A stretch of 64,000 nt of DNA from Escherichia coli (GCF_030013595.1 NZ_CP122768.1), one strand, 5' to 3'; numbered from the stretch's first letter, positions 1 to 20,892 are shown. Program-made: numbers and translations. Notes: a model not told the origin generated them from the sequence alone.

Positions 1-232
1 AGCGGCGGCAAAGTGGCAGCAGCTACAACGCGGAGCCGCAGCGTTCTCCATCACATTGGCACGTGGACGCGCAGAACTCTACCCCGAAATGCATGGCACG
101 GTAACAGGCTTTAAAAGCGAGATTGATAATCAGGACTGGATTATTGCGAAAGCCGAGCACACCATTGATAACAGCGGCTTTACCACGCAGCTTGAGCTTG
201 AGGCAAAAATCCCGGAATGGATAGCAGAATGA
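1..232 (+). CDS. 3' fragment of a phage late/tail gene, probably P2 gpD-like (runs off window start)
   Basis: Open frame from window start to TGA at 230-232 (..FTTQLELEAKIPEWIAE*); plus-strand, immediately upstream of an ogr-like gene as in P2 (D then ogr). Identification from position and weak sequence memory only. Confidence 0.4.
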   Translation, partial: AAAKWQQLQRGAAAFSITLARGRAELYPEMHGTVTGFKSEIDNQDWIIAKAEHTIDNSGFTTQLELEAKIPEWIAE

Positions 233-396
233 GACTCTTAAATGTATTAGTCCAGACACGTACTAGCGGGCTAAACGGCACAGTCTTATCTGACCATCTG
301 CCCCTGACACAGAGCAGACGGTCCTTGATCTTACCCACTAATAATGGACGCGCGACTAATATAATTTATTGCTTTTTATTTATACCTCACTGAGAT

Positions 397-1032
397 TTAG
401 CGAGCTAATATATTCAAAGAATTTAACAATTGAGTGTCGAGTGTTTCAGTTGCAGGAATCGGTAATCCATTCGCAATGCGGTAATTTTTCACAGACAGCC
501 TTGTGGATGGCCCCATTATGCCGTCAATATTTCCGTTATAAAATCCCCTGTCCAGCAATGCGAACTGAACTCGCATAATCAATCGCTTACGTTTCTCTGC
601 ATCAGAAGCAAGCCCATTACTCGTACGGTTAACCTCTGAAGTTCCAACAGAACTCGTGTTAGTGGTTCTATTATTATCGTTAGAACGAAGTGCACGCACC
701 GAGGAAGAGGACGATGAGGAACTTGCACCTGAACTTGAAGAACCAGATGAACTTGGTGAGCTGTATGTTTTTGGATAATAGGGGGTACTTCCACCATAGT
801 ATCCACCACCTGATGAGGATCTATGAGAGCTATGGCTCCTATGAGAACTATGGCTTCGATGCCCTGCGATATAAAATGGGACTTCCGTGTTAAGTGGAGC
901 TATCACTAAATCATGCTCATTAAGAGTCATACCAGGTAAATCACTCGCTCCTGTAGATGAATCGCTTGCCCATACAGAATTGTTGAGAGCCAAAAATCCC
1001 GGAAGTAGAGCAGCAAAATTAAACTTTTTCAT
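397..1032 (-). CDS. hxsA: HxsA-type His-Xaa-Ser repeat protein (signal peptide, tandem H-x-S triplets, Ser/Gly/Tyr-rich tract, C-terminal peptidoglycan-binding domain)
   Basis: Translation from MKKFNFAALLPGFLALNNSVWA (Sec-like signal) contains HRSHSSHRSHSSHRS, then SSPSSSGSSSSGASSSSSSSS, then a PG_binding_1-like C-terminus (LLDRGFYNGNIDGIMGPSTRLSVKNYRIANGL). Start ATG overlaps upstream gene stop (ATGA). Confidence 0.8.
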   Translation of the reverse strand: MKKFNFAALLPGFLALNNSVWASDSSTGASDLPGMTLNEHDLVIAPLNTEVPFYIAGHRSHSSHRSHSSHRSSSGGGYYGGSTPYYPKTYSSPSSSGSSSSGASSSSSSSSVRALRSNDNNRTTNTSSVGTSEVNRTSNGLASDAEKRKRLIMRVQFALLDRGFYNGNIDGIMGPSTRLSVKNYRIANGLPIPATETLDTQLLNSLNILAR

Positions 1033-2141
1033 AAAATTGGTCTCGGTGATTGATGAAAACGGCCTTTTGAGGAACTGAAATAGCCAGCACAGGAAGGCTT
1101 CTGAGTACATTCATCACATTCTTTTGGATAGTAATTTTTCCAATCAGAGATCGACTGAACAGCAAGCTCCCTAGCCCTTTCAGGAAGATAACACAAAGGA
1201 TAATTAAAAATTGTCAGAGGTATGCCTGACCTGTATGCAGCGTCTATGGCAGAGATTATTTTCTCACTATAACTACTGTGATCAATGAAGATGGTGGACC
1301 AGTTTTTTCGTGCCCAACCGATAGGCTCCAACCCCATAAGGGAAATCTGATTGATGTTGGAGAACACACGGCCAGCGAATTCTACGATATCATCCAATTC
1401 GGTATAGTTAGCCAGTGTAGGAATAACTCTAAGTTCGATATTAATCCCCAAGTTTCCTGCATTGATTAACCCTTTAACCGTTTCATTAAATGCGCCATCA
1501 CTCCCTACCAGATGATCATGCACAAGTGGTCTTGATGAGTAGAGCGGGATACCAAAGGTGATTTTGATCTTTTTGCTTCGCTTTGCCATTTCCTGTGTAA
1601 AGTTGGTATCAGCAAATTTGCGTCCGTTTGTTAAAACATGTAAAGCAGTATCTGGTGAATTCTCGATGATAAAATCAATGAAGTGAAGGAAGTCATCCCC
1701 ATATAGCAAAGGTTCACCACCGCTGACCCCAACAACTCCGTTCAAGCCAAATGAAGCTATAGCAAGAGCTGATTGGGTAAGTAGCCAGTCATCATTTATT
1801 TTCTTTGGTGGCTGCGAACAAAACAGACACAAGTTATTGCAGCGTTCCGTAACTAAGACAGTATTATGATTGGCTTTGCGTGACAGAATAACGCGTATCA
1901 TATTGCCATTGTTGATTATCCCAATATCTCCATCTTCAATTGACTCAAATAATTCAGTGCTAATAACAGAGAAATCAAAGCATGGTGGAATGGCATCATT
2001 ATTGCCTTCAGCAACTACTAGCAAATTGGGCAAAAAGAATAAAGGGTTCACTGGTTTTTGTTTGCATAACCGATAGAACCCCGTGGGCACGTTCTCTGTA
2101 GAAGCAAAATGAAAGATATCGTTCCTGATAACCTCAGACAT
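1029..2141 (-). CDS. Radical SAM maturase of the His-Xaa-Ser system (HxsB/HxsC-type; which of the two is not resolved)
   Basis: 370 aa ORF with CNNLCLFC (CxxxCxxC radical SAM cluster) and a C-terminal Cys-rich region (CDECTQKPSCAGY); sits between the other rSAM gene and hxsA with overlapping stop/start codons. Confidence 0.8.
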   Translation of the reverse strand: MSEVIRNDIFHFASTENVPTGFYRLCKQKPVNPLFFLPNLLVVAEGNNDAIPPCFDFSVISTELFESIEDGDIGIINNGNMIRVILSRKANHNTVLVTERCNNLCLFCSQPPKKINDDWLLTQSALAIASFGLNGVVGVSGGEPLLYGDDFLHFIDFIIENSPDTALHVLTNGRKFADTNFTQEMAKRSKKIKITFGIPLYSSRPLVHDHLVGSDGAFNETVKGLINAGNLGINIELRVIPTLANYTELDDIVEFAGRVFSNINQISLMGLEPIGWARKNWSTIFIDHSSYSEKIISAIDAAYRSGIPLTIFNYPLCYLPERARELAVQSISDWKNYYPKECDECTQKPSCAGYFSSSKGRFHQSPRPIL

Positions 2142-3522
2142 ATGCCCATCCTTTTAGCATCTCAGCCTTCGAACCACCCTCTGAGATGCAGTTCATCAGA
2201 TACCTGAACATCCCCTTGTGATATTGACAAAACGTTGAACGACTCCTATCACCGACAGGCTCACCCTGTACACTTATGTTCTGGCATGGATCTGAACCAC
2301 AAAATGGTTGATATGCACATGTATCACAACCTGGCAGAGCAAAATTGAACGATGAACTCAATACTGCGTTATAGTAAGGACTATCAGAAAATGATAGCGT
2401 CTTAACTTCACCCGCACTGAACTCCGTTTCAGGATTCACCTTCTGCAACATACGGCTCTCATCGCTACCATATACTCGACCGTCATAATTGAAAAGAATA
2501 CTGTTAAGCACGACTCCACTTGGAGACTTTAAATCCGCATAACCACTAAAACCGGGATTGAAGATCCTTTTCAGATGAATGGAGGCCGAATGTTCCACAA
2601 CCCTTATCCCTTCATTATTAATCTTAAGGATTTCATCTATCAACGAGGCATAGAAGCTGAAGTATTCGTCCATAGAAAAGGTGAAAGAAGCTTTTTGTGC
2701 AAACCCATAGGGACTAACAGGTCGGATAAACATGTCCTTGAGACCAAGAGACAAGTGAGCCTGAACAATCGATTCAGGACGTCTGATAAGCTCTTTAGTA
2801 ACTGTAGTAACCGTTGCAACGCGGCCAGCACCTAAAGAGTGTTTGATAGCCTCTACCCCTGACACTGTTCTACTGTACGCAAGCCCACGACCAAGAATTC
2901 GATTACTGTTGTGAACAACTTCCTCACCATCAAGCGACACAGAGAACGTTATGTTCCGGTCTCTCGACCATTCAATCATATCCTCATTCAAGACAGACAG
3001 ACTTGATGCCACCACCATCTCAAAATTGGTTCTTCCCAGCGTTTCAGCACATTGATCATAGATGCTCTGAATTAAATCAAACCGCAAGAGAGGCTCCCCA
3101 CCCTGTATCTCTATTTTGTAAGGTGGCGTTGATAGTTTTTTAATAGCCGAAATAATATCGGGGATGAGCTCAGGATTTAGGTCGTAACCTGAGGCATTAA
3201 CAGAAGCTCTACTAACCTGGCAATACTTGCATGTATGGTCACAACGTAATGTGGGTACAATCATGAAAATTGGCCTGACAGCCAGTTCATTCATCAATCG
3301 TTTTGCAAAAGCAGAACTTAAAGCATAGGGAGTTATAGCAGATGAGCTTTCACTGGTTATGAAAAGCTTACTTTCTAGCACGTTTGATTGCTCCGAACTA
3401 ATTCGCTCATCAGAAAGATCAATAAGGTCTTGCTCACCAATGAAATGATGAAAACCTGCAAGGTTGCTTATAAACACCTGTCCATTAGGCAATCTGTCAA
3501 AATTAAATGGCATCAATTCCAT
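2134..3522 (-). CDS. Radical SAM/SPASM-type maturase of the His-Xaa-Ser system (HxsB/HxsC-type)
   Basis: 462 aa ORF with CDHTCKYC radical SAM motif and C-terminal auxiliary-cluster cysteines (CDTCAYQPFCGSDPCQ...FCQ); stop overlaps next gene start by 8 nt; start overlaps hxsD stop (TAATG). Confidence 0.8.
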   Translation of the reverse strand: MELMPFNFDRLPNGQVFISNLAGFHHFIGEQDLIDLSDERISSEQSNVLESKLFITSESSSAITPYALSSAFAKRLMNELAVRPIFMIVPTLRCDHTCKYCQVSRASVNASGYDLNPELIPDIISAIKKLSTPPYKIEIQGGEPLLRFDLIQSIYDQCAETLGRTNFEMVVASSLSVLNEDMIEWSRDRNITFSVSLDGEEVVHNSNRILGRGLAYSRTVSGVEAIKHSLGAGRVATVTTVTKELIRRPESIVQAHLSLGLKDMFIRPVSPYGFAQKASFTFSMDEYFSFYASLIDEILKINNEGIRVVEHSASIHLKRIFNPGFSGYADLKSPSGVVLNSILFNYDGRVYGSDESRMLQKVNPETEFSAGEVKTLSFSDSPYYNAVLSSSFNFALPGCDTCAYQPFCGSDPCQNISVQGEPVGDRSRSTFCQYHKGMFRYLMNCISEGGSKAEMLKGWAYV

Positions 3523-3836
3523 TATGAAAGCCTCTCATCAACACTGCGAAGCACTTTATGGACAATAGAGTCTCTCAACGCCCCTGTTTTATGCTGTAGC
3601 TTTTCTCGCAAAGAGTAATCATTAAGCAGCCTATCGAATTCATAAAGGAATTTGGGATTATCGTTTTCAAAAGAGATTATCCAGTGGGAAACGTCTTCAT
3701 GGAGTTTCCATCGAGTAAGCGGAGTCATCCAATATAGACTATTGCGTATAACCCATTCAGAATATAGTTCTTTCTCAAACACTCTTTCGCTCATTGCAAT
3801 TATCTTCCAATACAAATATTCATGATCAGCAACCAC
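3522..3836 (-). CDS. hxsD: HxsD-type small protein carrying the LLNDYxLRE signature
   Basis: 104 aa ORF containing FDRLLNDYSLREKLQ; first gene of the four-gene minus-strand operon. True start may be an internal Met (MSERVF). Confidence 0.75.
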   Translation of the reverse strand: MVADHEYLYWKIIAMSERVFEKELYSEWVIRNSLYWMTPLTRWKLHEDVSHWIISFENDNPKFLYEFDRLLNDYSLREKLQHKTGALRDSIVHKVLRSVDERLS

Positions 3837-3871
3837 TTTAAAGCGGATTTTTCCTATGGCAACAATAATAT

Positions 3872-3974
3872 AACATATCCATAGATATGTTACAGATGCC
3901 TTGTTTCCCGTTGACTAATACATCACAACGTTAGTAATGGCTATCACAATTGTGAACTTCCACTTTTCACACAA
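3872..3974. promoter_or_regulatory. Divergent hxsD/ogr control region with two dyad-symmetric elements
   Basis: AACATAT-N6-ATATGTT palindrome at 3872-3891 and TGTGAA-N9-TTCACA dyad at 3954-3974, both in the 210-bp gap between divergent hxsD and ogr starts. Confidence 0.3.
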
Positions 3975-4046
3975 GACAAGCTGTTAATTGGAATCTGTAT
4001 CAGTACAACTTAGAATATCGGAAGCACCACAGTAAGGGAGGTCGCT

Positions 4047-4307
4047 ATGTTCCGTTGTCCGCTTTGTGGCGCATCCGCCCGAATCCGCACCAGTCGTCCG
4101 GAAAATGATTCAAACACCGTGCGGCAAAAGTATTACCAATGTAACAACCTAGAATGCGGCGTATGCTTCTCAACACTGGAAGCTTTCCATAAATTCACAT
4201 CAAAACACGCCTCCGGCGCTCACTCTTCAGAAGGTATCCCGTGGCATGAACTGCCAGCTTCACACAAAGGAAACAATCAGATGAGTTTGCCCTTACCTCA
4301 AAATTAA
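4047..4307 (+). CDS. ogr: Ogr/Delta-family zinc-finger late-gene transcription activator
   Basis: MFRCPLCGASARIRTSR...YYQCNNLECGVCF matches the P2 Ogr pattern (MFHCPLC..ARTSR...YHQCQNVNCSATF); C-terminally extended relative to P2 Ogr. Confidence 0.75.
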   Translation: MFRCPLCGASARIRTSRPENDSNTVRQKYYQCNNLECGVCFSTLEAFHKFTSKHASGAHSSEGIPWHELPASHKGNNQMSLPLPQN

Positions 4308-4367
4308 CAGGCAGAATTGCCGGAGTAACAAAAAAGAGATAGATTACGCGCGGGTGCCTTTCGGCTG

Positions 4368-4631
4368 ATGGTCGGAGGGAATACCCGAAGGCCAGATGTG
4401 GAAAGGCCCCGGAAAACATTTCTGTTTAACCGAGGCCCTAACCGCATTACCTTGACAAGTGAAAGGTTAGCGCCTCTCCGGAAAAGGAGCAAGTGCTATG
4501 TCGCAAAAATCGCTTACGGCCATCATGTTCTGCGTGACGGCAATCCTCATCATCTGGATGTTGCACGGTTCGCTGTGCGAAATACGGATGAGATTCTGGG
4601 GAGCGGAGTTTGCGGCGTTCTTACAGTGTAA
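4368..4631 (+). CDS. mok-like reading frame overlapping hok (translational coupling frame of a hok/sok locus)
   Basis: 87-codon ORF in a different frame that starts upstream of and overlaps the hok-like frame, the arrangement typical of mok. Confidence 0.4.
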   Translation: MVGGNTRRPDVERPRKTFLFNRGPNRITLTSERLAPLRKRSKCYVAKIAYGHHVLRDGNPHHLDVARFAVRNTDEILGSGVCGVLTV

Positions 4632-4638
4632 GCAGTAA
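4498..4638 (+). CDS. hok: Hok/Gef-family type I toxin, 46 aa
   Basis: ATG at 4498 preceded by GGAGCA; peptide MSQKSLTAIMFCVTAILIIWMLHGSLCEIRMRFWGAEFAAFLQCKQ has one hydrophobic helix and the Hok-type C-x-T...SLCEIR motif; the 5' element GGGTGCCTT (4352-4360) is complementary to AAGGCACCC (4695-4703), resembling tac/fbi pairing. Confidence 0.7.
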   Translation: MSQKSLTAIMFCVTAILIIWMLHGSLCEIRMRFWGAEFAAFLQCKQ

Positions 4639-4724
4639 GGAAACCGCGACGGGGGAGCAATCCCCCGTCAATCGGTTGCCAGGGTAAGGTCGATAAGGCA
4701 CCCTATCTCACAGACATGAACAAC

Positions 4725-4760
4725 AAACCCGCAACGTAAAAACTGCGGGTTTTCTTTTTG
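4725..4760 (+). terminator. Rho-independent terminator downstream of hok
   Basis: aaacccgcaacgtaaaaactgcggguuu hairpin followed by a T-run. Confidence 0.6.
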
Positions 4761-4902
4761 GTGTCCTTACTGACTTGAAACGGTGATCAGACTATAAGAC
4801 AAAGCCCACAATGTAGCGGGCTTACTCCCCTCTCCCTCCACTGAATGTGGACACATGGTGGAACGAAGATATATAAAACATTATAAATCAATCGGTTACT
4901 GA

Positions 4903-4928
4903 AAGAAAAAAGGCCGCAGAGCGGCCTT
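4903..4928 (-). terminator. Rho-independent terminator ending the minus-strand lambdoid gene set
   Basis: aggccgcagagcggcct hairpin with an A-run on plus strand (T-run on minus strand) immediately 3' of the ORF ending at 4949. Confidence 0.55.
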
Positions 4929-4948
4929 TATGGTTTATTGACAATTGA

Positions 4949-5164
4949 TTAAGACGTGTGGCACTTATTGGCACACCAATAGCAACCATTCACCCGGGAA
5001 TATCCTTTGGCCTTTGCCTCTGTTACCGCCGAAGAACAATCACTATAGTAACCAAGGTAATCGCGGTTAGCTACAGCAGGAAGATATGAACATTCCTCAG
5101 CATGCACCTCATGATCGCCATTGCTCTGAGCATTTTTGTTCACGTAATAGTGTTTAAAAACCAT
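4949..5164 (-). CDS. Hypothetical small Cys-rich phage protein
   Basis: 71 aa ORF, terminator immediately downstream; no family recognised. Confidence 0.4.
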   Translation of the reverse strand: MVFKHYYVNKNAQSNGDHEVHAEECSYLPAVANRDYLGYYSDCSSAVTEAKAKGYSRVNGCYWCANKCHTS

Positions 5165-5287
5165 TGTATAACTCCATGTTGACGCTGATATTCAGCATTA
5201 ACATGCTATATCACCAATTACACAAACATAAGCTTGTTATTTCAATTAGTTGATAACGATCACCACTGAACTTTGGCCTTGCGAAAT

Positions 5288-5497
5288 TCAAATGTTTTTC
5301 TGACTATTATTGGGCCGATAAACAGATATTATTTGAGCGTTTTGGTTCATTACATAAGCAATATCTCCATCTTTCAGAATGACTTTCCCATCCTTTCCCG
5401 ATACGGCAATACTCCGCTGCTCAGGATGATAGCCAATGCTACGCCCGCAATGGATCTCTTCCCCACCATTTTGAGACATGACTTTTACAGTTAACAT
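5288..5497 (-). CDS. Hypothetical small phage protein
   Basis: 69 aa ORF; no family recognised. Confidence 0.35.
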   Translation of the reverse strand: MLTVKVMSQNGGEEIHCGRSIGYHPEQRSIAVSGKDGKVILKDGDIAYVMNQNAQIISVYRPNNSQKNI

Positions 5498-5584
5498 TTT
5501 TCTGCTCCTATTTAGATGCCCTTTCCATCCGGGCCACTGTTCAAAGTAAATTTAGATTCAACAATATTCTGCTCTTACAGGCGA

Positions 5585-5767
5585 TCAGTTCTGCATACAC
5601 TGCCGAACACCGTCGACAATTTCACAGACCTGAGAAGCTGTATCGAAAAGCTGGCGCGCCTTATCCAGGCTGACGCATCCCACCAGGAAAAAAGGCACCA
5701 GTATCGCTACCAGTGCCCATTTCGCCGCCGTTCGCGGCATTCTGTGTGTCCAGTGTTTTCGCTTCAT
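5585..5767 (-). CDS. Small predicted lipoprotein (possible o-spanin or exclusion lipoprotein)
   Basis: MKRKHW... with hydrophobic signal and lipobox LVGC; lies downstream of the lysis cassette. Confidence 0.4.
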   Translation of the reverse strand: MKRKHWTHRMPRTAAKWALVAILVPFFLVGCVSLDKARQLFDTASQVCEIVDGVRQCMQN

Positions 5768-6266
5768 CTCACTATCCACCAATCAATCCGGATAAGCTCA
5801 ATACTCGCCAGGCGGTGGAAATGAAAATGGCAACCAACATTGCTGAAAATGAAAGGCCAACAACCACACAGAGAATTCGCGCCAGTTTTATAATGCTATC
5901 TGACATATTTACCCCTGCCCCACTTACGATTTCACAGCAATGAGCAATTTTGCCATCCCATACAGCATCGGAGACACAGCGATACCGACCGCCACCCACT
6001 TAATGGCAAAAGCCACCGCTCTGCTGATGTCATCAGTTACAGGCGCTTTCAATTCAAGGCCGTTTTTCATAGTCAACCTCAACAGAATTAGTTTATACTT
6101 CCTCATGTTCTCCTTTGCCTTACCCAAGGCCAGAAACAGAAAACCCCGGACTGTTACCGCAGCCGGGGTTTTTGCTATCTGATGCTATGCCCCTTACTTT
6201 CGCTCATCGTAGCCCCAGAAAAGAGCCTGCATGAGTTGAGGGTGTTCAGCACTTCAGTGTCAGTTT

Positions 6267-6812
6267 TTAAACCACCACGCGCTCTTTCATCCAGCCATAG
6301 ACAAACGACTCATTGGCCTCGCGTTTCTCTGCCAGCTCCAGATAACGCTCGCCCTGCGTACAGTTCAGGGCTTTCACCAGTACCAGTTCACCATCCCTGC
6401 TGCGATTTTTCAGATATGCCCGTAATGCATTAAGAGTACGCGGCCCGATGCGTCCATCAGCATCCATATCCGGATAGAGTTTCCCGCGCAGGTTGAAAAC
6501 GTTCAGCCAGCGCTGAAGCATTCTGGACGCCACAGTTGGCCCCATGTTCACGCCCGTATCGCACAACTCTGCGGCAATATCCGGAGACAGGTCCTCAACC
6601 TGGTCGAATCGTGGTCCGTACCAGTAGTCCGCCTCGAGTATTTCCAGCGCCTGCCCACGCGTCAGGTCACGCATATCGCCCTGATAACCGTGTGCACGGG
6701 CAACTTTTTCAGTGATGCCCCATTTAGTCGGACCACCTTTATCATCCGGGTGATTGACGTAACCGCCCTCTTTTCCCAGAATTTCGTCAAAAATTTCATC
6801 TTTCGACTTCAT
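6267..6812 (-). CDS. Endolysin, GH108-like muramidase with peptidoglycan-binding region
   Basis: MKSKDEIFDEILGKEGGYVNHPDDKGGPTKWGITE N-terminus typical of GH108 lysozyme-like phage proteins; follows two holin-like membrane genes. Confidence 0.65.
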   Translation of the reverse strand: MKSKDEIFDEILGKEGGYVNHPDDKGGPTKWGITEKVARAHGYQGDMRDLTRGQALEILEADYWYGPRFDQVEDLSPDIAAELCDTGVNMGPTVASRMLQRWLNVFNLRGKLYPDMDADGRIGPRTLNALRAYLKNRSRDGELVLVKALNCTQGERYLELAEKREANESFVYGWMKERVVV

Positions 6813-6813
6813 A

Positions 6814-7104
6814 TCAGCGCCTTCGTAATACAAGGATTTTTGATACGTTCCCGCGTGCTCGTATCACCAGCACGCAGAACACCAGGTTAATCAGGACGAC
6901 CAGCCAGTTACCGGGAGGAAAGCGACCACACAGATAACAAAGCGGCGCAAAGGCATAAAGCAGCATCAGCAGCCAGGCCAGCCACGACATCAGCGGTTTA
7001 TGTCTCGACTCACCACGACGATAAAAAAAGAGCGTCAGCACGATAACCGTGCTTAACACCACATTCAGTAATCCGGGAAGGTTACTTAACATTACCGCCT
7101 CCAC
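6814..7104 (-). CDS. Small multi-pass membrane protein, holin/antiholin-like
   Basis: 96 aa, strongly hydrophobic segments, wedged between holin-like gene and endolysin. Confidence 0.45.
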   Translation of the reverse strand: MEAVMLSNLPGLLNVVLSTVIVLTLFFYRRGESRHKPLMSWLAWLLMLLYAFAPLCYLCGRFPPGNWLVVLINLVFCVLVIRARGNVSKILVLRRR

Positions 7105-7471
7105 CCCGCAGACGGGAGAACAGCCCGGATACCAGCGATGCGATATCCTGCTGGTGGATGAATGAGAGAATCTTCACCGACACCACCGATACCAGTACCG
7201 CACAAAGCGCGTCGAGAGATGTGCTGTGGAGATTCAATTTTTCGACCAGCCAGGACGCAAGGACATCCGCCCCCAGCACGCCAACAATGAACGACACCAG
7301 AAAATGCGCCGCCACACGCCAGACAGAAATCACCTGTGGCATCGTGGCCACAAACAACGCCCCGGCAAACGCGCCAAACACAATCCCGAAATCCGTCCCG
7401 GTAAACAGCCCGAATACCGTCGCCCCGCCGAGCGCCACAGCAGTGCTGGAACCGGATAAGGGTTCAGACAT
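7082..7471 (-). CDS. Holin-like membrane protein
   Basis: Start MSEPLSG at 7471 with GGAGAA RBS; Gly/Ala-rich transmembrane segments; first gene of the lysis cassette. Confidence 0.5.
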   Translation of the reverse strand: MSEPLSGSSTAVALGGATVFGLFTGTDFGIVFGAFAGALFVATMPQVISVWRVAAHFLVSFIVGVLGADVLASWLVEKLNLHSTSLDALCAVLVSVVSVKILSFIHQQDIASLVSGLFSRLRGGGGNVK

Positions 7472-7670
7472 ATTTATTCTCCTGTAAATAAAAAGGACCA
7501 TCAGCGGCCCCGTAACTGACATTTTATTAACGTTTGAAGATATGGATATTTATCAGGGTTTACCGTTTTCTGAACCCTGGATATGTTAAGCATTCAGCCC
7601 GCCAGTGGTGGGACGCTGGCTCATCATAGAGAAAGAGGGATGGCTGATTACCTCTGATCAGGGAAATCAC

Positions 7671-7940
7671 ATGCAGTTTTTACATAAAAGAATGCATTTA
7701 AATGCAGGAGATACGGTAGTGGTTGACTGCTCTCATCAGTGCAATATTTTGCTGATGACAGATACAAACTTTAATAACTACCGCAACGCAAGAAGCTTTC
7801 ATCATCACGGTGGTGGCGGTTTTTTTCAGAGATTACCGGCCCACCTTCATGTACCGCATTCAGGTTACTGGAATATTACAATTGATTTAGGAGGCGGAAG
7901 TGCAGCTATTCGGCACTCCATTTCCGTCATCCCAGCATAG
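7671..7940 (+). CDS. Hypothetical phage protein, antisense to the late operon
   Basis: ATG at 7671 with AGGGA RBS (the listed ORF begins at a GTG at 7605); hairpin plus T-run downstream at about 8196-8235. Confidence 0.4.
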   Translation: MQFLHKRMHLNAGDTVVVDCSHQCNILLMTDTNFNNYRNARSFHHHGGGGFFQRLPAHLHVPHSGYWNITIDLGGGSAAIRHSISVIPA

Positions 7941-11583: not shown

Positions 11584-11637
11584 TACTAGCTTTGCCATCA
11601 CGTATAAAAACGGCAAAATATCAGATTCACACGAAAT

Positions 11638-11666
11638 ATATGCCTTTTTATCTACTTTTGCAATAC
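11638..11666 (-). promoter_or_regulatory. pR'-like late promoter immediately downstream of Q
   Basis: Minus-strand TTGCAA, 17 nt spacer, TATATT; positioned between Q stop (11671) and the terminator. Confidence 0.45.
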
Positions 11667-11670
11667 TTTG

Positions 11671-12342
11671 CTATGAAAATGCCGCCTTTTGTTTTGAACG
11701 TGTTCCCTCCACCAACAATAAAGCTTCACCATCCAGCCGATGAAAAATGTGTTTCATTGCAACCCAGTGACCAGTAAATGTCTTGGACCAGTTTTTGGTT
11801 GTTACTCCCACCAGTAACGCCAGTTCCTGGTATTCGTAACCTTCCCCACCAAAAAGCTCAGCTTTTACCGCCTGCGCCGCCAACCAGATCAACGTCTTCA
11901 GGCGCACCAGAGTTTTTCCTGCAATTTTTCTGGTACCGGATTGAGCATTAAATTCAGTCCACGCCCACTGCGTTATCGCGATCTGATGCTCCCAGCAAAT
12001 GCTACCGCTGTAACACCACAGCAGCCAGGCTTTATGATGTTCTTCAAGAGACAGAACGGCGCGTCGCCATGATGATGTCGAAAACTCAACCGGACTGACC
12101 AGGGCAATTGATGAACCTTTCACCAGCGATTGCTTTCCCGGGATCGGTGGATTATCCAGCGTTACTATTTTTCCAGTGACCTTATCGCGGTACCGGATTT
12201 TTTTACGTCTGTAACGCCCTGTATTGAACATGGCATTCTCCTGCCAGGCTTCAAGCTGACCTTTTGTTGCTCCACTCAAATCAGCGGTGGCGATCATGAG
12301 CTGCTCACGCACAAACTGTAAATACTGGTTATTCATGCGCAC
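11671..12342 (-). CDS. Probable late antiterminator (Q-like)
   Basis: 223 aa ORF directly upstream of a promoter/terminator pair and downstream of rusA, the canonical Q position; family assignment by context only. Confidence 0.45.
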   Translation of the reverse strand: MRMNNQYLQFVREQLMIATADLSGATKGQLEAWQENAMFNTGRYRRKKIRYRDKVTGKIVTLDNPPIPGKQSLVKGSSIALVSPVEFSTSSWRRAVLSLEEHHKAWLLWCYSGSICWEHQIAITQWAWTEFNAQSGTRKIAGKTLVRLKTLIWLAAQAVKAELFGGEGYEYQELALLVGVTTKNWSKTFTGHWVAMKHIFHRLDGEALLLVEGTRSKQKAAFS

Positions 12343-20178: not shown

Positions 20179-20655
20179 ATGCTTAGTGGTAAAGACTTAG
20201 GCCGAGCGATAGAGCAGGCCATTAACAAAAAAATCGCATCGGGATCCGTCAAATCAAAGGCGGAGGTCGCACGCCACTTCAAAGTCCAACCACCATCAAT
20301 TTATGACTGGATTAAGAAAGGCTCTATAAGTAAAGATAAACTTCCAGAATTATGGCGTTTCTTTTCTGATGTTGTTGGTCCAGAGCATTGGGGGCTTAAC
20401 GAATACCCCATACCAACCCCCACCAATTCAGATACAAAAAGTGAACTTTTAGATATAAACAACCTTTATCAAGCAGCCTCTGATGAAATAAGAGCGATTG
20501 TAGCTTTCCTGTTATCTGGAAATGCTACAGAACCAGATTGGGTTGACCACGATGTTCGCGCCTACATAGCAGCGATGGAAATGAAAGTGGGTAAGTATCT
20601 GAAAGCTCTAGAATCTGAACGGAAAAGCCAGAACATCACAAAAACTGGAACTTAA
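20179..20655 (+). CDS. Prophage repressor (CI-like, no peptidase domain; RacR-like size)
   Basis: 158 aa with N-terminal HTH-like region; flanked on both sides by the same operator motif. Confidence 0.55.
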   Translation: MLSGKDLGRAIEQAINKKIASGSVKSKAEVARHFKVQPPSIYDWIKKGSISKDKLPELWRFFSDVVGPEHWGLNEYPIPTPTNSDTKSELLDINNLYQAASDEIRAIVAFLLSGNATEPDWVDHDVRAYIAAMEMKVGKYLKALESERKSQNITKTGT

Positions 20656-20750
20656 ACTTATATGGTCTGACGGAAAACTCCTGGATTCCGTTATTTAACC
20701 CCCCATCACTTTCTGCTGTCGCCATCACCTATTAGGTTACGATCAAAACA

Positions 20751-20793
20751 TTAGGCATAGCCTATTGACAATCAATTAGGCATTACCTATAGT
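20751..20793 (+). promoter_or_regulatory. OL/PL-like: two operator sites overlapping a near-consensus sigma70 promoter
   Basis: TTAGGCATAGCCTAT and TTAGGCATTACCTAT; TTGACA (20765-20770), 17 nt spacer, TATAGT (20788-20793). Confidence 0.6.
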
Positions 20794-20892
20794 TCCAGCA
20801 TACCACCCACCCCGCCCCACAGAACGCAGGGCAATACTTCGAGTTACCAGGCAGTGGTCAGGGGTTAAGTAGCCAGCCCGAGGCGTAAGAAC

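Follow-up and report, generated by a model that had tools for sequence, protein, structure and literature searches.

Organization of the Lysis Cassette

The window described here is the whole stretch of DNA that was analyzed, 64,000 nucleotides of Escherichia coli (GCF_030013595.1, NZ_CP122768.1), with positions counted from its first letter. Positions 6267-7471 are the span of exactly three minus-strand genes, which ORF calling finds closely packed. The gene holin1 (7082-7471, minus strand) encodes a protein of 129 aa that matches the Pfam profile Phage_holin_8 (PF16931, E = 1.5e-22) and the PHROG family phrog_198, annotated ‘holin’ (5e-41). It is followed by holin2 (6814-7092, minus strand, 92 aa), a match to Phage_holin_3_7 (PF05449, E = 9e-21) and to phrog_217, likewise ‘holin’ (4e-35), and then by the endolysin gene (6267-6812, minus strand, 181 aa), whose product carries the domains Glyco_hydro_108 (PF05838, E = 1.3e-26) and PG_binding_3 (PF09374, E = 1e-26). 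The gathering scores are exceeded by a wide margin for every Pfam match, which excludes a chance pattern. An earlier note on this DNA had read the locus as a lysis cassette of two holins and a GH108-type endolysin, and the Pfam and PHROG profiles together with hydropathy bear this out; the search against holin families that it had proposed, once run, matches both membrane ORFs to holin profiles.

The three genes are arranged with an overlap of 11 nt between holin1 and holin2 and a gap of 1 nt between holin2 and the endolysin, a spacing that fits translational coupling. Shine-Dalgarno sites are clear for holin1 and holin2 and weaker for the endolysin. The cassette had also been thought to be intact, and this stands: all reading frames are uninterrupted, the ORFs are identical (100%) to annotated copies elsewhere, and dN/dS against diverged relatives (dS 0.34-0.74) is 0.08-0.47 across the three core genes. 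Such low values indicate that the genes are maintained by selection.

Five complete E. coli genomes carry the 2.5 kb surrounding the cassette at 100% identity, and in 12 the identity is at least 99%; the genes are annotated there as ‘putative holin’, ‘phage holin family protein’, and ‘glycoside hydrolase family 108 protein’. In strain N18-04097, the identical cassette lies inside a complete lambdoid prophage beside yccA, with terminase, portal, capsid, head, and tail genes. The neighbors of the cassette within the window are a methylase gene, a DUF1883 gene (7671-7940, plus strand) that sits between the antiterminator gene Q and holin1, and small hypothetical ORFs. The window holds no tRNA genes, which are present in phiP27 and SerU-LTIIb. 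The cassette type is ordinary, already annotated, and partly characterized by experiment in relatives. It is very probably the lysis module in the late operon of an E. coli lambdoid prophage of the phiP27/SerU-LT-II type, most likely working in the canonical holin-endolysin manner.

The Two Holin-Family Proteins

The hydropathy of holin1 reveals three clear transmembrane domains (TMDs) and a less pronounced hydrophobic segment at the N-terminus; the C-terminal tail is basic and ends in SRLRGGGGNVK. Its Pfam match covers the full PF16931 profile at 80.4 bits (cut-off 26.4). As a small membrane protein with a charged tail and a holin profile match, encoded two genes upstream of an endolysin, holin1 has the features of a holin. 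An AGGAG ribosome-binding site precedes its ATG at 7471. Its counterparts in SerU-LTIIb, phiP27, and the Stx2k phage share 81-86% identity with it, and dN/dS against them is 0.14-0.18.

A longer holin1 of 146 aa, starting at an upstream ATG (7522) as annotated for phiP27 L28, was rejected because a Shine-Dalgarno site is missing there; that ATG precedes a hairpin and a T-run. The hairpin (7494-7511) was itself considered as an intrinsic terminator and rejected, since it has six pairs and a folding z-score of -0.35, which is not significant. The apparent conservation of ‘FIYRR’ ahead of holin1 is an artifact of the AGGAG ribosome-binding site and the T-run being read in frame.

The second protein, holin2, is class-I-like, with three TMDs and a strongly basic C-terminus (RARGNVSKILVLRRR), and matches PF05449 at 74.1 bits (cut-off 25.4). 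Its gene has a GGAGG ribosome-binding site and dN/dS of 0.24-0.47. The loop RRGESRHKP and the C-terminal tail agree with the positive-inside rule, from which an N-out/C-in topology is predicted, as for a class I holin. A check of the in-frame starts found the lambda-type dual-start holin/antiholin arrangement in neither holin1 nor holin2. The upstream GTG of holin2 would add the residues V-E-A-V only, none of them basic.

Experimental work on a relative bears on the division of labor between the two proteins. In a 2025 study of porcine STEC, a 130-aa homologue of holin1 was deleted and complemented, and was found to be needed for fluoroquinolone-induced (SOS) release of Stx2e (PMC12571312). 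Because this homologue alone restores toxin release, holin1 appears to be the better-supported candidate for the hole-forming protein.

The Endolysin

Hydropathy finds no hydrophobic segment, signal peptide, or SAR segment in the endolysin, and an enzyme that has neither a TMD nor a signal sequence is expected to depend on a holin. The GH108 domain matches PF05838 at 93.3 bits (cut-off 21.2) over profile positions 1-85 of 85, and the C-terminal PG_binding_3 domain matches PF09374 at 93.4 bits (cut-off 24.6). NCBIfam gives a sub-threshold match for the endolysin only and none for the other proteins.

A search of solved structures returns two close relatives, Sen1395 of S. Enteritidis (PDB 6V3Z; E = 4e-107, 153/180 identical, 85%) and TtsA of S. 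Typhi (PDB 6V40; E = 5e-86, 124/177 identical, 70%), both of which align to the endolysin over its full length and ungapped. The catalytic triad of TtsA consists of Glu14, Asp19, and Thr28 (PMC6996933). The corresponding residues of the endolysin are E15, N20, and T29, of which the Glu and Thr are identical to TtsA and the Asn is also found in active Sen1395. Missing catalytic residues would have counted against the earlier note, and here they are kept. The endolysin, with a dN/dS of 0.08 against SerU-LTIIb, is thus predicted from sequence to be an active cytoplasmic GH108 N-acetylmuramidase of the Sen1395/TtsA class.

The two relatives have different roles. Purified peptidoglycan is hydrolyzed by Sen1395, the overexpression of which arrests growth. 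TtsA is a muramidase devoted to toxin secretion that acts specifically on LD-crosslinked polar peptidoglycan, and Sen1395 is unable to replace it in this task. Four groove residues distinguish Sen1395 from TtsA. In the endolysin, D117, R121, and E165 are Sen1395-like and N167 is TtsA-like; because three of the four are of the Sen1395 kind, the enzyme looks like a general phage endolysin and not a specialized toxin-secretion muramidase.

These residues also bear on a different reading of the cassette, as a holin/muramidase-dependent secretion device (type 10 secretion, of which TtsA with typhoid toxin and ChiWXYZ of Serratia are examples) that releases cargo without killing the whole population. 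The identity of the endolysin to TtsA and the TtsA-like N167 fit such a device, as do the AB5 toxin genes that adjoin relatives of the cassette (stx2e in phiP27, LT-IIb in SerU-LTIIb) and the promotion of Stx2e release by the holin1 homologue in strains reported to be without endolysin (PMC12571312). The enzyme is nevertheless closer to Sen1395, which cannot substitute for TtsA, both in overall identity and at the groove. No toxin, chitinase-like gene, or other obvious cargo adjoins the cassette in the window, and the complete lambdoid prophage of N18-04097 has no lysis module other than the identical cassette. A secretion device is accordingly judged highly improbable, and canonical holin-endolysin lysis is the reading followed below.

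Antiterminator Q, Late Transcription, and the Proposed Mechanism

The antiterminator gene Q (11671-12342, minus strand) matches Phage_antiter_Q (PF06323, 1e-89) over profile positions 1-216 of 220. It is intact, lies ~4.2 kb upstream of the cassette on the same strand, and carries the annotation Q in the N18-04097 prophage, which is 98% identical. Just downstream of Q, a promoter scan finds a consensus match, TTGCAA-17-TATATT (11635-11663, minus strand), which is a candidate for the late promoter pR'. Since promoter-like sites in the region are no more numerous than in the shuffled expectation, it is the position of this site that suggests its role. The interval from Q to holin1 contains the plus-strand DUF1883 gene and several terminator-like hairpins, so that expression of the cassette probably depends on antitermination. 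In this prophage, Q and a complete lysis module have stayed linked, and the module could lyse the cell.

The identities, intactness, conservation, and order of the cassette genes are established here, and on this basis the following course of lysis is proposed. RNA polymerase modified by Q would start just downstream of Q and read ~4 kb to the cassette, presumably under the control of Q, and holin1, holin2, and the endolysin would be transcribed as translationally coupled genes. The GH108 muramidase, which is without an export signal, would accumulate folded in the cytoplasm. At a programmed time, one holin, probably holin1, would open large holes in the inner membrane, and the second membrane protein would act as a co-holin or timing regulator. 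Having reached the wall, the enzyme would cleave the MurNAc-GlcNAc backbone while the PG_binding_3 domain at its C-terminus binds the peptide stem. The outer membrane would then be breached with the help of the outer-membrane lipoprotein encoded by orfC, a conserved fourth gene to which this role is provisionally given.

The Interrupted Prophage

From 4907 to ~27350, the window matches the N18-04097 prophage, including Q, the methylase, most of the early region, the integrase, and yccA. No virion module is found within this match. The immunity region is Rac-like (racR/ydaS/ydaT), and the Rac prophage is cryptic in E. coli K-12. To the left of 4907 lies the right end of a P2-like prophage, with a fragment of tail gene D, hxsA/C/B/D, ogr, and hok; in other strains, the P2-like prophage sits between ihfA and btuC.

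The two prophages meet at 4907-4929, a shared att core and terminator hairpin (AAAAAGGCCGCAGAGCGGCCTTT) that forms the left end of the lambdoid DNA. The att core of the P2-like prophage (AAAGAAAAAAGGCCGCAGAGCGGCC, 25 nt) is duplicated at both prophage ends in strain B2, and in the uninterrupted lambdoid prophage of N18-04097 an identical site of 20 nt lies exactly at the point where the window switches. The order at the junction in the window is P2 arm, core, and lambdoid arm. None of 5426 complete E. coli genomes contains this junction, and neither it nor the predicted hybrid attL (CATGAAAAAGGCCGCAGAGCGGCC joined to ATAAACAC) has a match in a collection of species-representative genomes (0 matches). 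The most economical reading is that a P2-like phage has probably integrated at a secondary site in the lambdoid prophage; the alternative is that the secondary site recombined with attR at ihfA, giving an inversion. The earlier note had described the element as lacking virion genes; with the prophage interrupted here and the identical cassette sitting in a complete prophage in N18-04097, the lambdoid virion module may lie beyond the edge of the window, or an inversion may have separated it. Under both readings, any virion genes that persist have lost their contiguity with the lysis genes, while the linkage between Q and the cassette is kept.

A prophage cut off in this way, with virion genes absent from the window and an immunity region of the kind found in Rac, could be taken for a defective one whose cassette is a silent, recently acquired remnant that is never expressed or lytic, and the terminator-like hairpins and antisense gene between Q and holin1 might be added to that case. 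The state of the genes argues otherwise, as the reading frames are all intact and identical to those of the complete prophage, purifying selection acts across the family, and Q is intact. The truncation is also an att-core junction, which is typical of insertion by another phage and not of erosion. A silent remnant is thus an improbable explanation, and a lysis module still linked to its antiterminator is preferred.

Small Downstream ORFs and the Outer-Membrane Step

Three small minus-strand ORFs lie beyond the endolysin. The first, orfA (5924-6106, minus strand), encodes 60 aa with a C-terminal TMD and belongs to phrog_1115, of unknown function. The second, orfB (5772-5906, minus strand; 44 aa, single TMD, phrog_4906), is an optional accessory ORF. 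The third, orfC (5585-5767, minus strand), encodes a 60-aa lipoprotein precursor with a signal peptide, the lipobox L-V-G-C, Val as the +2 residue, and a mature part of 30 aa that includes two invariant cysteines. An alignment of 16 homologues gives G30, C31, C48, and C57 as invariant and shows that the basic n-region of the signal peptide is unusually well conserved. The family is confined to Enterobacterales (Escherichia, Salmonella, Citrobacter, Cronobacter, and Yersinia), and its members are at least ~70% identical.

The lipoprotein orfC resembles an o-spanin in that it is short, has a lipobox and a +2 residue other than Asp, and is placed in a lysis cassette. It is 95% identical to an unannotated ORF of phiP27 (record coordinates 20679-20858), and that ORF overlaps the o-spanin computed for phiP27 by Kongari et al. 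2018 (20706-20861, with an i-spanin at 20348-20542; PMC6139136 supplementary file 5). The spanin of phiP27 was there classed as ‘separated’ two-component, and its combined periplasmic length of 62 residues was the shortest of all (Kongari et al. 2018, PMC6139136). The phiP27 ‘i-spanin’ corresponds to an ORF of 64 aa that runs antisense to one of 90 aa, the latter being the more plausible of the two. A tblastn search of the window reveals no counterpart of this i-spanin, nor do the other relatives examined contain one. Among 80 IMG/VR loci that carry holin1 relatives, which form the survey sample, the i-spanin ORF occurs in one, phiP27 itself. The published phiP27 spanin assignment does not hold across relatives.

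The common order in these 80 loci is holin1, holin2, an M15 or GH108 enzyme, optionally a 93-aa ORF, orfA, and orfB, and then orfC. The last gene of the cassette is orfC in 65 of the 80, with either endolysin type. It follows the endolysin directly in at least 28 of these 65, where orfA and orfB are missing. Examples of such direct succession are E. coli E7, AQ15, and a Yersinia enterocolitica prophage, in which the start of orfC and the stop of the endolysin overlap by 4 nt.

The distribution of orfA and orfB is different. In PhiR12_3 and GER2, homologues of orfA separate the endolysin from Rz, in the Stx2k phage a homologue precedes orfC, and a 77% identical homologue of orfB (dN/dS 0.25) lies just upstream of Rz in PhiR12_3. 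A query spanning orfC to orfA matches 1979 of 5426 E. coli genomes, many of which match the orfA-orfB stretch or part of it. In structure, the TMD of orfB is followed by ~14 aa and orfA has its TMD at the C-terminus, and neither has the form of an i-spanin. Both were rejected as i-spanins because they are optional, because PhiR12_3 and GER2 have them ahead of genuine Rz, and because they are frequent among E. coli genomes without orfC.

Other spanin types were sought in the window. No Rz or Rz1 homologue is found anywhere in it by tblastn, no same-strand ORF with a lipobox or TMD is nested in the cassette, and orfC is not embedded in any other ORF of its strand. A u-spanin of the T1 gp11 type does not describe orfC, which has no hydrophobic segment past the signal peptide; neither an i-spanin nor a u-spanin was found in the window. 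Two loci carry canonical Rz/Rz1 in addition to orfC, and in both orfC looks degenerate, with stop codons in GER2 and an ORF without its N-terminal part in L089. This points towards functional redundancy between orfC and Rz/Rz1, although two cases are too few for proof.

The earlier note had suggested that the small membrane and lipoprotein ORFs may be spanins. For the lipoprotein the suggestion holds up in part, given the coincidence of orfC with the o-spanin of Kongari et al. and its constancy among related loci; for orfA and orfB, which are optional, it does not, and the inner-membrane partner that a spanin would call for is absent from the window. In our view, orfC belongs to the cassette as a real and conserved component and is the leading candidate for the outer-membrane step; it does not appear to be part of a demonstrable two-component spanin and does not have orfA or orfB as its partners. 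At 30 residues, mature orfC is too short to span the periplasm. Since the i-spanin is seen only in phiP27 and orfC is the constant last gene, the phiP27-type cassette could conceivably work without a two-component spanin, orfC then being a new class of partner-less outer-membrane lysis factor or else using a holin as its inner-membrane partner; this is a tentative proposal, and rather unlikely on present evidence. Of modest wider interest is that a common enterobacterial cassette ends in a lipoprotein of 30 mature residues without a detectable inner-membrane partner.

Comparison with Known Systems

The endolysin shares the two-domain fold family of Sen1395 and TtsA, with the catalytic Glu and Thr conserved. 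It differs from TtsA in its charged, Sen1395-type groove, N167 excepted.

With Rz1 of lambda, orfC has in common a 60-aa precursor, a lipobox, a +2 residue compatible with outer-membrane sorting, periplasmic cysteines, and its position at the end of the cassette. It differs from lambda Rz/Rz1 in lacking an Rz-like inner-membrane partner and any sequence similarity to Rz or Rz1. Rz1 is proline-rich, whereas the mature 30 aa of orfC are proline-free and predicted to be helical. For the phiP27 o-spanin, 25 of 30 residues are predicted to be helical (PMC6139136 supplementary file 3).

SerU-LTIIb (GenBank KU052038, a partial genome) has holin1, holin2, and the endolysin in the same order, at 81%, 86%, and 87% amino acid identity and 84% DNA identity. 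It differs in having the LT-IIb toxin genes directly after the endolysin and an extra copy, holin1a, upstream; probes for orfA, orfB, and orfC are unmatched at that locus by local tblastn. The endolysin reads EAGY in SerU-LTIIb and EGGY in the window.

The cassettes of phiP27 (Stx2e) and phiSTEC1575-Stx2k resemble that of the window in holin1 (86% amino acid identity) and holin2 (76-78%), in the same gene order and overlap, in the terminal lipoprotein orfC (95% and 82%, respectively), and in lying between the Q/methylase region and terminase. Both phages differ in encoding an M15 L-Ala-D-Glu peptidase where the window has the GH108 muramidase, and in phiP27 the stretch from the endolysin to orfC, which is taken up by orfA and orfB in the window, consists of unrelated DNA. 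Related cassettes flank the Stx2e and LT-II toxin genes, and they control the release of toxin.

Spanin Candidates and Small Membrane Proteins of the Lysis Region

The lipoprotein encoded by orfC (5585–5767), downstream of the GH108 endolysin, belongs to a family with an unusual signal peptide. The n-region is basic, unusually long, and conserved, with M1, R3, H5, H8, R9, and P11 invariant in the family alignment, and the mature part of 30 amino acids contains two cysteines that are invariant across the family in the same alignment. Canonical Rz/Rz1, the inner-membrane spanin component and its lipoprotein partner, occur together with an orfC homologue at two loci, phage GER2 and the related locus L089. 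The GER2 homologue (3489–3671 of its locus) is interrupted by stop codons, and the sole orfC ORF found in L089 (6107–6250 of its locus) is N-terminally shortened. Judged from these reading frames, orfC looks degenerate in both of the Rz/Rz1-bearing loci.

For phiP27, Kongari (2018) assigned the i-spanin to an ORF on the minus strand of its locus (4345–4539). Given that this ORF is antisense to a 90-amino-acid ORF (4283–4555, plus strand) and that none of the 79 other related loci carries it, the published phiP27 spanin pair is probably half wrong.

The small membrane ORFs orfA (5924–6106) and orfB (5772–5906) have DNA matches in many E. coli genomes, O157:H7 prophages included, where the matching DNA is positioned between the endolysin and Rz. 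A possible functional parallel is Lcc6 of LambdaSo, a 65-amino-acid TM protein needed for lysis (bioRxiv 10.1101/2024.01.23.576932).

Junction with the P2-Like Prophage

The right end of a P2-like prophage occupies 1–4935 of the window and comprises a tail gene D fragment, hxsA/C/B/D, ogr, and a hok-like ORF. The lambdoid prophage meets it at 4907–4929, at a copy of the P2-like prophage's own att core. This junction has no match among 5426 complete E. coli genomes, and it looks like either a secondary attB inside another prophage that was used for integration or the product of an att-mediated inversion. At the extreme edge of the lambdoid DNA, adjoining the att-core hairpin, is orfE (4949–5164, minus strand), a 71-amino-acid soluble, Cys-rich ORF with the motif ..CYWCANKC.. 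that belongs to phrog_4298 (function unknown). The P2-like prophage carries as cargo, between tail gene D and ogr, a complete His-Xaa-Ser system (397–3836, minus strand), in which HxsB and HxsC are radical-SAM maturases and the other members are the HxsA repeat protein and HxsD.

Comparison with Related Phages

The endolysin of SerU-LTIIb (4991–5536 of its locus) has EAGY beside the catalytic Glu, whereas the window protein and the crystallised muramidases Sen1395 and TtsA have EGGY. Upstream of holin1, a DUF1883 gene (7671–7940, plus strand) lies between the methylase and holin1 on the opposite strand, antisense to the presumed late transcript. At the equivalent spot, phiP27 has a small plus-strand ORF (L27), with stx2e just past it.
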